Assembly: GCA_948466395.1 (NCBI GenBank)
Contig: CAOKAG010000005.1
Location: 1-54,502, forward strand
Direction of reading: 5' to 3'
Origin: an uncultured Mycoplasmatota bacterium
Lineage (GTDB): Bacteria; Bacillota_I; Bacilli_A; RF39; UBA660
DNA length: 54,502 nt
In this document: piece after piece, positions 1 through 7,091 of the stretch
How the letters are laid out: every line of letters starts with the position of its first letter
Position numbering within the stretch: position 1 is the stretch's first letter
Translations under genes and position numbers: made by a program
The notes under the pieces: generated by a model
What the model was told of the DNA's origin: nothing
The model's input: the letters and a program-made list of their open reading frames with translations, nothing else
The model's database searches: none

Positions 1-101
1 TAAAACTCCGTATTAAAAGCAAAACTTCTTAATGAAAAATTAAATCGTGTGAAAATTATTCATACCTTTTACAAACTTCGTAAGTAAAGGTTCTCATAAT
101 T

Positions 102-2078
<1,977 letters not shown>

Positions 2079-2195
2079 TTAAAACAAGAAAAAGTCCATA
2101 TTGATAAATTAGATATAACTTTATCATTAGGACTTTAAAGTAGCATGTTTCAAATTGAAAATAATTGTTGAATAGAAAAAAGAAGTTAGTTTTAA

Positions 2196-2885
2196 TTATA
2201 TTTTAACTTCTTTTTTATTAGAACTATTTTTAGTAAGTTCATGACTAATTATCCACTTTATATCTTCAATTGATTTATCTATGTTAAATCGACCATTTCC
2301 TATTGGATAATAAACTGAATAAAATTTATATTCCTCTCCATTTATTTTTCTGATAAACCTTTTTTTTCGAACTTGGGAAACTGATATTTTTTCCCCTAAT
2401 ACAATAGAACTTACTTGATTTCCAAATAAAATAATAACTTTTGGTTTAATAATAGTAAACTCCTGTTTTAATAAATGAAGATATTCTTTATAAACAGCAT
2501 CAGGTAATTCTCTAGCATCAATTTGAGTACACTTTCCAAGATTAGTAATAAAATATTTATGTTTTATTACATCAGCATATACTTCTTCAGCAAATTCTTC
2601 AGTCCATTCCGTTCCTTTAATTGTCTTTATTTTTGTATAAATTTTTTCATCAATCAAACCTAGTTCTACAAAAAGATCCCAGATATTTTTAGTCCCTATC
2701 CATGGAGATTTTAGTCCTTTCCATGTTTTAGAAGAAGCAATATTTCTACCAGTCGGGTTCATAAAAACAAAACAAATATTAGGACTATCTGTACAACCAC
2801 CATTATAAATAGAATCTAATTCTTTGGCTCCATATTTCTTTTGAAGCTTGTCATAATATATATTTAAGTCTTTTAATTGCTTCAT
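2196..2885 (-). CDS. Uracil-DNA glycosylase superfamily protein (divergent)
   Basis: 229 aa. FVFMNPTGRN lies where MUG/SMUG-type UDGs have G(I/M)NPG, and the C-terminal YYPIGNG lies where the HPS-type motif sits. Recognised by eye only. Confidence 0.5.
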   Translation of the reverse strand: MKQLKDLNIYYDKLQKKYGAKELDSIYNGGCTDSPNICFVFMNPTGRNIASSKTWKGLKSPWIGTKNIWDLFVELGLIDEKIYTKIKTIKGTEWTEEFAEEVYADVIKHKYFITNLGKCTQIDARELPDAVYKEYLHLLKQEFTIIKPKVIILFGNQVSSIVLGEKISVSQVRKKRFIRKINGEEYKFYSVYYPIGNGRFNIDKSIEDIKWIISHELTKNSSNKKEVKI

Positions 2886-2894
2886 GTTTTTCTA

Positions 2895-3533
2895 CTACTT
2901 TACTAAATTTTTAGAATGATTGTGCTCAATATCAGTAATGACTTTTAAAATATAATCAAATAGTTCTGATTGTTCCTGATTCATCATTTCAATTCGTTCG
3001 TTATCATCTAATTCAGATTTAAATTTATTTAAATTAGGGATTATTTGAATTGATTCTAATGGATATCCCTCATCAATAACTTTACTGCTTGTACTAGAAA
3101 AAATACGATTTGCTCTATAATCAAATGTAAAAGTTGTTTCTTCATCCGAAACAATTGCAACAGATTTTAGAAAATAACCTTTTAGTTCTCCCAATGTTCC
3201 ATATTCTTTAACTAAATTTTTATAATATTCTATCATTTCATTATCATTTAGACGTTTTCCATTTACACGTCTAACATGAACACCTGGTTGAATTTCATTT
3301 GGAATGTTATCAAAAAATAATCCTTCATCAATTGCAATGGTAGGTATTTTACTAACTTCATAATATGCTTTAGCCTTTATAATTGCATTTTCACTTGGAC
3401 TTTTGCCTGTTTCTTCAACATCTAAATCTAAACTTACATCATTTAAACTTAATACATCTATTCCTTTTTCTTTTAATTTAGTTCCATAATATTTAATTTT
3501 TGCCTTATTTGTAGTTGCCAATAATACTTCCAT
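2895..3533 (-). CDS. Ham1/RdgB-family non-canonical purine NTP pyrophosphatase (ITPase-like)
   Basis: 212 aa. LLATTNKAK (cf. LATGNxGK), EETGKSPSENAIIKA, IDEGLF and GYPLESI match the RdgB/Ham1 motif order. There is a 9-nt gap to the UDG-like gene, so the two likely form an operon. Confidence 0.65.
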   Translation of the reverse strand: MEVLLATTNKAKIKYYGTKLKEKGIDVLSLNDVSLDLDVEETGKSPSENAIIKAKAYYEVSKIPTIAIDEGLFFDNIPNEIQPGVHVRRVNGKRLNDNEMIEYYKNLVKEYGTLGELKGYFLKSVAIVSDEETTFTFDYRANRIFSSTSSKVIDEGYPLESIQIIPNLNKFKSELDDNERIEMMNQEQSELFDYILKVITDIEHNHSKNLVK

Positions 3534-3743
3534 AGTTTATTCTCCTTTTTCATTTAATTTGTCAACATAATTATATCATCAATTCACTTTCTTTTATAGA
3601 TATTTGAGGAATAAAATTAAATATAATCATATAATTGCCAATATCTATATAAAAACTAATGCGATATATTTCCTTTAAAATAATGCTTAAATAAAAATCG
3701 CTCAAACATTTTTATCAACAAAATATTAGACATTTTATCCTTA

Positions 3744-3771
3744 TTGACTGTACACAATCAAGTGATACAAT
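3744..3771 (+). promoter_or_regulatory. Sigma-A-type promoter: TTGACT, 16-nt spacer, TGaTACAAT (extended -10)
   Basis: TTGACT is at 3744-3749 and TACAAT at 3766-3771, preceded by TGA. Confidence 0.45.
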
Positions 3772-3777
3772 ATAGTA

Positions 3778-3836
3778 GAATATGAAATAATTGTATCTCA
3801 AAGTGCTACTTCTAAATGTTAGTAGTGCTTTTTTTC
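3778..3836 (+). ncRNA. Candidate ~60-nt small RNA (promoter plus intrinsic terminator, no ORF)
   Basis: Downstream of the 3744 promoter. Hairpin GUGCUACU / AGUAGUGC (3803-3810 and 3821-3828, with two G-U pairs) followed by a T7 run. No start codon or RBS lies inside. Confidence 0.3.
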
Positions 3837-3895
3837 ATATTCAAACCCCTACATTTTCATCATTGATTTTCTTCATTAGTAAGACATACTTACAG

Positions 3896-3929
3896 CCATA
3901 AAATAATTGAAATTTTCAAAATTTATGGC
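3896..3929. repeat. Near-perfect 34-bp palindrome: GCCATAAA..(TTGAAAtTTTCAA)..TTTATGGC
   Basis: 8-bp perfect outer arms (3896-3903 and 3922-3929) enclose an inner palindrome at 3907-3919. Confidence 0.6.
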
Positions 3930-4096
3930 CGAAATTTTAGAAAAATCACATTGAAAAAGTGTGTACGATTGTTAAACACATTTTAGAAAGTCTTTATTTA
4001 TAAGGGTTTTGAAAAAAGGAAAAGTTTACGTTTGTATAACAAATTCCTTAAATGTAAACACCTGTGTTTTCACTGATACCTTATGAAACAAGGGAA

Positions 4097-4115
4097 AACT
4101 AGCCACTGGCTAGTT
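4097..4115. repeat. 19-bp perfect palindrome AACTAGCCaCTGGCTAGTT
   Basis: 9-bp arms around a central C. Unusually GC-rich for this DNA. Lies ~260 nt upstream of the small ORF/LSR operon. Confidence 0.6.
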
Positions 4116-4179
4116 CTTTGTAAACAGGGTTATCCTGCTTTTATTTTGTTTTGATTATTTTTTAAAAGAGAGTATTTCT

Positions 4180-4199
4180 ATGGCCATAACTTCGGCCAT
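4180..4199. repeat. Inverted repeat ATGGCC-N8-GGCCAT (the first copy is itself the palindrome ATGGCCAT)
   Basis: Read directly. Shares the GGCCAT/ATGGCC motif with 3925-3930. Confidence 0.55.
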
Positions 4200-4371
4200 T
4201 ATTTTTCATATTTTTATGATTTTGATAGCTATTATTTAGTTATCTTTTTTTTGTTTGTAGTGCTGTATAAAATAACCAAGCGCGTTATAATTTCTTTAAG
4301 ATTATTTAAAAGAAGGTTGGTGCGTAACTATGAAATGAATTGTTTAAGAATTTAAAGGGGGTAATAATTAA

Positions 4372-4554
4372 ATGGAAAGAAGTGATAAAAGATTAGAACA
4401 TCTAAAAACTTATGTAGCAGAAATTGCTATGCTAGAATTTATCAAAGATAATAATTTAATTGATATTAACGAATACAAGAAAATCAAAAATAAAATTGAA
4501 AATGAATATGTAAAATATAACAAATTAAACAATTCAGAATATGGTTTTGCGTAA
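4372..4554 (+). CDS. Small helical protein encoded immediately upstream of the LSR (SHOCT-like LIDINEYKKIKNKI motif)
   Basis: 60 aa with RBS AAAGGGGG upstream. Same position and orientation relative to its LSR as ORF 45536-45733. Confidence 0.55.
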   Translation: MERSDKRLEHLKTYVAEIAMLEFIKDNNLIDINEYKKIKNKIENEYVKYNKLNNSEYGFA

Positions 4555-4603
4555 ATAAAATATTTGAAATATGCTATGATTCAACAATTATGGAAAGGAA
4601 AAA

Positions 4604-6385
4604 ATGAATAATAAAGCCCGCGTAATAGCACCAACTTCTAAAACAATGTGCTTAAAAGGAGATGTAAAATATAAACTTATTCGTACTTGCGCTTATTGTA
4701 GAGTTTCCACAGATAATGAAGATCAAAAGACAAGTTATGACTCACAACGAATTCATTATAAAAATATGATAGAAGAAAATCCTGACTGGGAATTTGTAGG
4801 AATCTATGCTGATGAGGGTATCACTGGTACACAGACTAAAAAAAGAGAACAATTTAATCAAATGATGAGTGATGCTTTAAATGGTAAGATTGATTTGATA
4901 CTAGCGAAGTCTATTTCAAGATTTGCTCGTAATACAGTTGATACTTTAAATTGTGTAAGACTTCTTCGTGAACATAATGTAGATGTATTCTTTGAAAAAG
5001 AAAACATTCATACTCTAGGTTTATCTAATGAATTATTCTTAACTTTATATAGTGCATTCGCACAAGCAGAAAGTGAATCAATATCCGAAAATGTAAAGGC
5101 TGGAGTTCGTATGAAAATGAAACGTGGAGAATTAGTAGGAAAGTATGCTCCATTTGGATATTTATATGATAAAGAGAAAGATATCATAATACCTGATGAA
5201 AGTAAGAAAGATATTGTTACTTACATTTTTGAAGAATATTCCAAAGGTGTGGGTTTTAGAACAATAGCATTACAGCTTAATCAACTAGGAATACCTAGTC
5301 CATCTAATTTAAAATGGTGTCATGCTTCAGTAAGAAGAATAATCACAAATGAAAAATATGTAGGAGATTTAAAAACTGGTAAATACTATACTGAAAATGT
5401 TTTAACTCATAAAAAGAAAGTTAATTATGGAGAGAAAGAACAATACTTTACTTCTAATCATCACGAACCTATTATCTCTCGCGAATTATGGAACAAATGT
5501 CAAGAAATATTAACTATTAGAAGTAAAATTAGCAAGCCAGATGGGAATCGTGATAAATTTAGTAGAAAGTATCCATTTAGTAGTAAAATCTTTTGTGAGA
5601 TATGTGGAGAGAGATTTATCAGACGTTCTTACAAAATCAGAAGTAGCGGTAAAGAAGTTGCTTATTGGATATGTAGAAGTCATAGAAATAAAATTGAATG
5701 TTCCAATCTTATCCATTATAAACAAGAAGAATTGGAAGATATATTTGTACTTGCTTATAACAAACTATTTCAAGATAGTGATAAATATATCCATTCATTT
5801 ATGAAAAAAGTAAATGAAGTAATCAATGACAATCAAGATTATAATAATCAAAAGAAGATTAAGGAAGAAATCTCTAAGCTAGAAAATAAGTTATCTAATT
5901 TAATAGATTTACAACTTGATGGCTCTATTTCAAAAGAAATACTAAATCAGAAAAATCAGGAAATTACTAAAAAGATTAAAGAGTACGAACAACAACTAAA
6001 AGATACTGAAGCTATAGAAAATACTAGAAAACAAAAATTAGAACAAATTGATAAAATATCTAATACCTTAAAACGGTATAAAGGTCTTACAAAATTTAAT
6101 GAAGAAGTATTCAATAGTCTAGTCGATAAGATTATCATTGGCGAAAAATTAGAAAACGGAAATGAAGATTTTTATAAAATTAAATTCATTTTAAAGACAG
6201 GAGAACTAATCAACGAAAATCTACCTAATGGGAAACTAGATATAGGTACAAGTTTTGGTAAATATGGTTTTACAATCACAAAACAAGAACTTGAAGAAAA
6301 AGAAGATAATGTGTCTGCCTATGTATTACAACGGCACACGAATATAAAGTCCTGCTATTTTCTTTTCATCATTCATATTTTTTAA
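4604..6385 (+). CDS. Large serine recombinase of the nested element. The last 16 codons are read from DNA outside the element.
   Basis: AYCRVSTDNEDQ catalytic motif, SRFARN, recombinase domain, zinc ribbon CEICG..CRSH, coiled coil, and a DUF4368-like FNSLVDKIIIGE..YKIKFIL. The ORF crosses the attR core at 6336-6337. Confidence 0.9.
   Translation: MNNKARVIAPTSKTMCLKGDVKYKLIRTCAYCRVSTDNEDQKTSYDSQRIHYKNMIEENPDWEFVGIYADEGITGTQTKKREQFNQMMSDALNGKIDLILAKSISRFARNTVDTLNCVRLLREHNVDVFFEKENIHTLGLSNELFLTLYSAFAQAESESISENVKAGVRMKMKRGELVGKYAPFGYLYDKEKDIIIPDESKKDIVTYIFEEYSKGVGFRTIALQLNQLGIPSPSNLKWCHASVRRIITNEKYVGDLKTGKYYTENVLTHKKKVNYGEKEQYFTSNHHEPIISRELWNKCQEILTIRSKISKPDGNRDKFSRKYPFSSKIFCEICGERFIRRSYKIRSSGKEVAYWICRSHRNKIECSNLIHYKQEELEDIFVLAYNKLFQDSDKYIHSFMKKVNEVINDNQDYNNQKKIKEEISKLENKLSNLIDLQLDGSISKEILNQKNQEITKKIKEYEQQLKDTEAIENTRKQKLEQIDKISNTLKRYKGLTKFNEEVFNSLVDKIIIGEKLENGNEDFYKIKFILKTGELINENLPNGKLDIGTSFGKYGFTITKQELEEKEDNVSAYVLQRHTNIKSCYFLFIIHIF
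6338..6376 (-). pseudogene. Outer LSR, detached 5' fragment (MNDEKKIAGLYIR, then V from the shared GT core)
   Basis: Minus strand reads AAAGGAGG-N9-ATG AAT GAT GAA AAG AAA ATA GCA GGA CTT TAT ATT CGT GT, then runs into CCG TTG TAA. The xxAxxYxRV pattern is the canonical start of a serine recombinase. Confidence 0.8.
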
Positions 6386-7014: not shown

Positions 7015-7091
7015 TGGTGTCCTGAGGGAGATTCGAACTCTCGACCGTACGCTTAGAAGGCGTATGCTCTATCCAGCTGAGCTATCAGGAC
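7015..7091 (-). tRNA. tRNA-Arg (anticodon UCU), CCA encoded
   Basis: Manual cloverleaf: 7-bp acceptor GUCCUGA/UCAGGAC, D arm GCUC..GAGC, anticodon stem UACGC/GCGUA with loop CUUCUAA, T loop UUCGAAU (one A-C mismatch in the T stem). 77 nt. Confidence 0.9.

Follow-up and report, generated by a model that had tools for sequence, protein, structure and literature searches.

The DNA analysed here, a contig of 54,502 nucleotides from an uncultured Mycoplasmatota bacterium (CAOKAG010000005.1; hereafter the window), has a G+C content of about 25% across its length and contains near its left end two co-oriented genes on the minus strand, whose products resemble a uracil-DNA glycosylase (UDG) and an inosine triphosphate pyrophosphatase (ITPase). 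The first open reading frame (ORF) of the pair (2895..3533) encodes a divergent nucleoside triphosphate (NTP) pyrophosphatase-like protein of 212 aa, P0002, with a predicted Ham1/RdgB fold. It is followed after 9 nt by the gene of a UDG-superfamily glycosylase-like protein of 229 aa, P0001 (2196..2885). The 4.35-kb serine-recombinase element in which both genes lie carries no other cargo. An initial annotation of the window, which had assigned the genes to these families and had supposed that they remove deaminated bases from DNA and from the nucleotide pool, was exact in the coordinates of the ORFs, the gap between them and the motif FMNPTG of the glycosylase.

P0001 scored 26.2 bits with the Pfam UDG profile PF03167, whose gathering cut-off is 24.3. 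Its AlphaFold2 model (pLDDT 95) was closest in fold to family 4 UDGa enzymes (T. maritima 1vk2/1l9g, T. thermophilus 1ui0 and S. tokodaii 4zbx; VIA Z 19-20, root mean square deviation 2.5 A over ~178 residues), followed by UdgX (Z 18.5), family 5 (Z 17.6) and MUG/TDG (Z 15-16). Family 4 also gave the best profile match: a profile of 39 diverse P0001 relatives matched family-4 structures with an E value of 5e-15, in its C-terminal half only, and the motif-3 stretch ITN..KC is common to both. Based on the Pfam score and the modelled fold, P0001 is a member of the UDG superfamily.

The active site of the protein is peculiar. The motif FMNPTG (residues 41-46) is invariant among close relatives, and over the wider family motif 1 reads F-M/I-N-P-T, with Asn43 nearly invariant in the 39 diverse relatives. 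The first residue of UDG motif 1 is nearly universally Gly (PMC9796141), whereas P0001 begins this motif with Phe. Family 4 enzymes possess the motif 1 GE(A/G)PG and HPS/A in motif 2; in P0001, motif 2 is YYPIGNG (YFPVGRG in relatives), with Tyr/Phe replacing His. This His is critical and accounts for the greater part of catalysis in family 4 enzymes, whereas families 2 and 6 do without it (PMC5387724). The only cysteines of P0001 are C31, C38 and C119, the N-terminal CxxC being absent from it but kept in distant relatives. The 4Fe-4S cluster of family 4 is defined by four cysteines, of which P0001 presumably keeps one. With the family-4 model TIGR00758 a score of 34.5 bits was obtained, far under the cut-off of 125.3. 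Motif 1, the missing motif-2 His, the missing CxxC and this score rule out that P0001 is a family 4 UDGa.

Other families were not matched either. Family 6, the hypoxanthine-DNA glycosylases, resembles P0001 in that it shows the UDG fold without a motif-2 His, and its substrate is a deaminated purine. It was rejected, as the family-6 DNA-deoxyinosine glycosylase model TIGR04274 did not match P0001 at E values up to 0.01 but gave 125.7 bits with a control protein from the same genome. At the same threshold, the MUG/TDG models NF007570 and TIGR00584 failed to match, as did the ung equivalog models of family 1. All NCBIfam models that matched P0001 or P0002 scored far below their curated cut-offs. 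Compared to the MUG/TDG motif G-I-N-P-G, Asn and Pro are present in motif 1 of P0001, with the flanking Gly residues changed to Phe and Thr. The Asn occupies the place of the water-positioning Asn of families 2 (MUG/TDG) and 3 (SMUG1), which makes these enzymes the closest mechanistic analogues, even though the structural similarity to family 2 is lower than that to family 4. We concluded that P0001 belongs to an uncharacterised clade whose active site seems to fit none of the six described UDG families.

This clade is large and tightly conserved. Homologues of P0001 form 5372 clusters at 90% identity, the best 120 of which are all at least 76% identical to it, and few full-length clusters at 50% identity. 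The family occurs in at least 590 species genomes, mostly metagenome-assembled genomes (MAGs) from the gut, and is patchily distributed within the order of the source organism (66/201 genomes, 36/98 genera). Against nine orthologues, the ratio of nonsynonymous to synonymous substitutions (dN/dS) of P0001 was 0.09-0.18 with dS saturated; the conservation therefore reflects constraint and not recent spread. The source genome harbors a second glycosylase of the same type on contig C1 (L089, 3054-4388), which is 62-64% identical and frameshifted at its C-terminus. It is located in a chromosomal gene row, where it adjoins a Cys-rich UDG of another, family-4-like kind, together with a dCMP deaminase and further ORFs. 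Fusions of the glycosylase domain with a HAD hydrolase (from a Saccharibacteria MAG) or with unrelated domains were likewise recorded among long proteins (P0395 and others); most of them have 1-6 members each and may be gene-calling artefacts.

P0002 matched the Pfam profile PF01725 (Ham1p_like) with 62.2 bits over profile positions 1-130 of 186 only. Foldseek searches with its AlphaFold2 model (pLDDT 89.9) retrieved as top structures S. aureus Ham1, E. coli RdgB and other ITPases (4bnq, 1k7k, 2pyu and 3tqu; E 1e-13 to 1e-12, TM 0.69-0.76), KomB of the Kongming system being a weaker match. As judged by the model, P0002 has the ITPase fold, so that for both proteins the family proposed at the outset was borne out by profile and predicted structure. 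In alignments with RdgB (1k7k) and S. aureus Ham1 (4bnq), the residues N9, K12, E41, K53 and the catalytic D69 of P0002 correspond to RdgB N10, K13, E41, K53 and D69, and they are invariant in 21 relatives (alignment A2). P0002 thus shares the fold, the N-terminal residues and the catalytic Asp with the RdgB/Ham1/ITPA enzymes but deviates at its C-terminus, where FGYDP is changed to EGYPL and SHR to MNQ, and where the protein ends with a long extra helix. C-terminal motifs of the FGYDP/SHR type contact base and phosphate in Ham1 enzymes. The best NCBIfam equivalog, NF011397, gave 68.1 bits (cut-off 234), and TIGR00042 gave 53.9 (cut-off 145.35). P0002 belongs to no characterised Ham1 subfamily. 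We read it as a probably active NTP pyrophosphatase. Among close Ham1-like partners, dN/dS values were 0.15-0.34. Within the order, a Ham1-family gene was present in 44 of 101 sampled genomes versus 14 of 14 control genomes; ITPase function seems to be dispensable or patchy in this group of small genomes.

Membership of P0002 in the defensive KomB clade was considered and rejected. Members of the KomB clade always have His instead of the catalytic Asp and are accompanied by a SIR2 partner, KomC (10.1101/2024.12.20.629578). In the P0002 family Asp69 is invariant, and the element contains no further cargo gene and no SIR2.

The element carrying the pair (1986..6337) is bracketed by the two pieces of a split gene, which encodes another, outer large serine recombinase. 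The 3' part of this gene (102..2000, minus strand) was recognized by the Pfam domains Resolvase and Recombinase and by analysis of the N-terminus. Its frame picks up at ~1990 with VSTEDQ, the ORF start listed at 2000 being fortuitous. The 5' piece, MNDEKKIAGLYIRV, was found at ~6376-6338 on the minus strand; it is a normal serine recombinase start and is preceded by a GGAGG ribosome site. Uninterrupted paralogues on contigs C8 and C11 read GLYPRVSTEDQ. The intact paralogues and the split frame demonstrate that positions 1986-6337 are an insertion in the outer recombinase gene, located in its 'RV|ST' catalytic-serine codons. Besides the pair, the insertion comprises an 840-bp spacer, a 60-aa ORF (4372..4554, plus strand) and the gene of an inner large serine recombinase of 593 aa (4604..6385, plus strand; Pfam Resolvase, Recombinase and Zn_ribbon_recom), presumably the mobility gene. 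The pair accordingly lies between both junctions of an insertion that has its own recombinase, as expected for cargo of such elements, and excision is predicted from this arrangement. The inner recombinase ORF overruns the insertion junction by ~48 nt (6337-6385), antisense to the first codons of the outer recombinase; because it crosses the junction, the C-terminus of the inner recombinase depends on the state of integration. Elements of the Tn4451/Tn5397 type and SCC-like elements likewise combine a recombinase with short cargo and integrate site-specifically. Here, however, integration took place in the catalytic-serine codons of a further recombinase gene, and the cargo is a clean-up pair for nucleotides and DNA rather than a resistance gene.

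Two relatives of the element were identified. A contig from a mouse-gut MAG (L001) exhibits the same left junction, in the order Ham1-UDG-outer recombinase, at 86% nucleotide identity. Contig C26 of the source genome (L088, 1590-4553) contains a decayed sister element, 87% identical over inner recombinase and spacer, in which both recombinases are truncated. The 60-aa ORF is 88% conserved there and gave no match with Pfam, NCBIfam or PADLOC. In place of the pair, the sister element harbors in the same position and orientation an orphan gene for a protein of 270 aa (P0393; L088:3308-4120, plus strand), for which no Pfam or PADLOC match and no usable Atlas match was obtained. The presence of another gene at this site means that the cargo in this slot of the element can be swapped. 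A second Ham1-like paralogue, 40% identical to P0002, is situated on contig C7 of the source genome (L087, 715-1893; C7:22205-25744) next to a peptide-deformylase-like gene and fragments of an outer-type recombinase (52-67% identical). This locus looks like another decayed recombinase element.

To what extent the two gene families are linked was determined at the best 80 genomic loci of the glycosylase family. The divergent Ham1-like clade is the commonest neighbour of the glycosylase. A gene of this clade lies directly upstream and co-oriented at 15 of the loci (17 with contig-edge fragments), the intergenic distance being mostly -4 to 17 nt, so that a lack of linkage elsewhere, which the initial annotation had named as a refutation, does not apply. 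An ITPase-type gene is located within 300 bp of the glycosylase at 19 loci, and these neighbours come from three families, namely divergent Ham1-like, canonical Ham1 and YjjX/PF01931. Full-length canonical Ham1 is encoded directly downstream of the glycosylase at three further loci and a YjjX-type ITP/XTPase directly upstream at one. On one contig (L078:956-4250), a single glycosylase gene stands amid YjjX-type, divergent Ham1-like and canonical Ham1 genes, all of them co-oriented. Moreover, three loci (L010, L011 and L019) contain glycosylases that are 92-95% identical, adjoined by Ham1-like genes merely 43% identical to each other. Such near-identical glycosylases with dissimilar neighbours signify that partners have been exchanged between loci and the pairing has been re-formed, as read from the sequences. 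There is also a natural UDG-Ham1 fusion of 417 aa, whose glycosylase part is 73% and whose GYPL-type Ham1-like domain is 39% identical to the proteins studied here; it exists in several sequence variants, those listed being recorded for ~50 contigs in total. Partner swapping and fusion suggest that selection has acted on the pairing itself. Given the relatedness of the loci, the Mantel correlation of partner distances (r = 0.46) provides weak evidence only.

Pairing may also be associated with mobility. A recombinase was encoded in the fetched flanks of 5 of the 15 paired loci versus 5 of the 65 unpaired ones, which suggests that recombinase elements pick up the pair more often than the single gene. 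At L010, L011, L019 and L111, the Ham1-UDG pair has a TnpV gene and a large serine recombinase as direct neighbours. These loci represent a second kind of mobile element tied to the pair. Most of the pairing in this gut lineage is nevertheless found within chromosomal rows of house-cleaning genes, contrary to the earlier opinion that the arrangement is not a usual housekeeping one. Other immediate neighbours at the 80 loci are NUDIX (6), HD (6), Ogt (2), AP endonuclease family 2 (2), GNAT, dCMP deaminase (2) and TnpV (3) genes.

The pair is therefore a recurrent, selected and sometimes fused module of two uncharacterised subfamilies. Since the two genes recur side by side, even fused, in many gut bacteria, they most likely act jointly in ordinary clean-up rather than in immunity. 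Our best explanation, which we hold with somewhat better than even confidence, is that both genes constitute one operon for the two-tier clean-up, in the nucleotide pool and in DNA, of a non-canonical base, and that this operon is accessory fitness cargo. The Ham1-fold enzyme would hydrolyse the abnormal (d)NTP to the monophosphate and thereby block its incorporation into DNA. Once the same base is nevertheless present in DNA, the UDG-fold enzyme would flip it out and excise it, and base excision repair would take over at the resulting abasic site; the motif-1 Asn of the glycosylase may position the water, like that of MUG/TDG and SMUG1. In small-genome gut Bacillota with patchy ITPase-type functions, the module could be an accessory fitness trait, of which the copy in the source genome was presumably captured as sole cargo of the 4.35-kb element. 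The scheme builds on the folds, the preserved catalytic residues, the recurring adjacency, the fused protein, purifying selection and carriage by the element, all of which are shown; the enzymatic activities, the common substrate and the fitness benefit are what we infer.

The target would most likely be a damaged or deaminated purine, e.g., xanthine or a related analogue. MUG was reported to be highly specific for xanthine (PMC13579944). In the source genome, which is 90% complete, searches for EndoV, an AAG-type glycosylase and YjjX yielded nothing. MUG carries Asn in motif 1, and the ITPase families that occur as neighbours act on XTP. By analogy, our guess for the most economical candidate substrate is xanthine, because uracil and hypoxanthine are covered by other enzymes, an Asn-type MUG is xanthine-specific and ITPase families accept XTP.

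Several observations weigh against a joint clean-up of this kind. The source genome encodes Ung on contig C10 (321 bits) and on contig C7 a true family-6 hypoxanthine-DNA glycosylase of 163 aa (125.7 bits, cut-off 80), so that uracil and hypoxanthine are already taken care of. As the motifs of the FGYDP/SHR type are replaced, a specificity of P0002 for ITP/XTP may not be assumed. Furthermore, the glycosylase has no ITPase partner at 61 of the 80 loci, and 16 of 20 fetched Ham1-like loci are devoid of the glycosylase. Genomes of the order possessing both genes numbered 13 compared to ~10 expected; this is near chance, and the argument therefore draws on adjacency and fusion only. With regard to the initial annotation, sanitation as a theme was corroborated by the NUDIX, HD, Ogt and AP endonuclease neighbours, whereas a deaminated base as the substrate was not established, in view of Ung, the family-6 enzyme and the altered motifs.

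Three explanations that place the pair in biological conflicts are possible: defence against phages, counter-defence and protection from toxins. We judged the first of them unlikely, yet it survives best. It supposes a Brig-type system, in which the glycosylase excises a modified base that occurs in phage DNA only, the Ham1-like enzyme degrades the corresponding modified dNTP and the element spreads the module. UDG-fold defence effectors have been proven, namely Brig1 (PMC11078745), Brig2 (10.1101/2025.10.29.685425) and Brig3 with its helper BapA (10.64898/2026.02.25.707755). Brig3 acts with a helper enzyme encoded in its own operon, and the Brig proteins and KomB, being UDG-fold and HAM1-fold proteins in phage conflict, are often encoded on mobile DNA. 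The location of our pair on a mobile element, the patchy distribution of the glycosylase family and the several non-canonical motifs at conserved active-site and C-terminal positions in both proteins would suit such a system. Its genomic context is different, however, as the neighbours elsewhere are mainly house-cleaning and repair genes; the Brig proteins, for which PDB searches brought up neither a sequence nor a solved structure, were compared by their described features. Defence models (e.g., HerA and PDC-S05) were matched by some neighbours at other loci, which would suit a Brig-type system, but strong matches are limited to a few out of 123 neighbours, and PADLOC-DB 2.0 (2023 library) recognized neither the pair nor the two recombinases nor the 60-aa ORF. 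Further partners of the glycosylase are full-length Ham1 and YjjX-type genes, whose products act on damaged purines of the host type, and it is highly conserved (75-89% identity, dN/dS ~0.1). Such strong conservation is unusual for defence genes. In a more elaborate form, to which we attach little credence, the pair would be a mobile two-layer immunity against a phage-specific modified purine, combining dNTP starvation with abasic sites in the phage DNA. If true, it would amount to a Brig-like defence whose partner acts at the level of the pool, a combination so far undescribed.

Equally little credence is due to the assumption that the pair is a neutral passenger, captured accidentally by the recombinase element and without a role in mobility, perhaps with one gene only being of importance. 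The unrelated orphan gene in the same slot of the C26 sister element fits this assumption, as does the fact that each gene usually occurs without the other. Both genes are intact, however, and in comparison with the 86%-identical copy from another species they gave dS values of 0.5-0.7 and dN/dS of 0.09-0.15, which is indicative of purifying selection; partner swapping and fusion also argue for a selected pairing.

Counter-defence is quite improbable. In that case the Ham1-like enzyme would degrade (d)ITP signals or toxic (d)ITP produced by Kongming or RADAR deaminases, and the glycosylase would repair the DNA damage. The HAM1-like protein of Kongming indeed senses a dITP messenger, and RADAR-like deaminases make ITP/dITP (10.1101/2024.12.20.629578). 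Hydrolysis by P0002 is plausible in view of the retained catalytic Asp, and the pair is carried by a mobile element. This carrier is, however, a 4.35-kb integrative element and not a phage, and most copies of the family reside in chromosomal house-cleaning rows. By tblastn, the glycosylase family was not found in 50,697 phage records and 72,556 plasmid records. Among the 2.9 million contigs of IMG/VR, 5 carried it, and L111, one of these, actually is an element with the order LSR-Ham1-UDG-TnpV-LSR (LSR, large serine recombinase). Hence, the defence and counter-defence roles that the initial annotation had offered as options gained no support from PADLOC or from the phage and plasmid records.

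To our knowledge, the DNA deaminase toxins described to date make uracil, and uracil lesions are already handled by Ung of the source genome. It is thus very improbable that the pair protects against interbacterial deaminase toxins, with repair enzymes as a second layer of immunity, as reported for EndoV in Bacillus subtilis. A repair endonuclease encoded in a toxin locus was found to confer protection from a DNA deaminase toxin besides restricting a uracil-DNA phage (PMC13648612), and antagonism is plausible in the dense gut habitat, but neither toxin nor immunity nor type VII secretion genes were detected among the immediate neighbours here or at the 80 loci.

The concept of house-cleaning combined with base excision repair is already established, so a clean-up module of this composition is not a new kind of system, and its mobile carriage is a modest addition to an ordinary concept. 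If our interpretation is confirmed, the glycosylase represents a large, tightly conserved and biochemically uncharacterised branch of the UDG superfamily, which resides mostly in animal guts. Neighbourhood and natural fusion would then tie this glycosylase to ITPase-type enzymes, which leads to a concrete substrate hypothesis. Cleaning of the nucleotide pool and base excision would be packaged as one transferable unit of gut bacteria with reduced genomes.

Candidate expression signals of the operon were read from the DNA between positions 3541 and 3578 (minus strand). A possible extended -10 box, TGATATAAT, lies ahead of P0002 at ~3570-3578, and a putative ribosome-binding site, AAAGGAGAA, at ~3541-3549 before the ATG at 3533. 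A scan for consensus promoters and terminators revealed no enrichment; as the promoter scan needs both hexamers, the extended -10 box TGATATAAT received no score. An A/U-rich hairpin of 13 bp followed by U-rich sequence overlaps the stop codon of the glycosylase gene (2176..2216, minus strand). RNA folding yielded -10 kcal/mol (z = -2.2, with 1 of 200 shuffles as good), making it a candidate for a weak operon terminator. Across 15 loci, a conserved operator upstream of the pair, including a DinR/LexA box, was not found; at many of these loci the pair is embedded in a longer operon.

Two minor observations concern the surroundings of the element. A tRNA-Arg(TCT) gene (window 7015-7091, minus strand) separates the recombinase island from gerM/spoIIIAH-like genes. 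At the left border of the window (1-55), the opening 52-57 bases recur with 98-100% identity at the ends of contigs C14, C22, C31, C38, C48 and C56, which probably reflects the k-mer overlap of the assembly at a repeat, the contig breaking inside repeated DNA.

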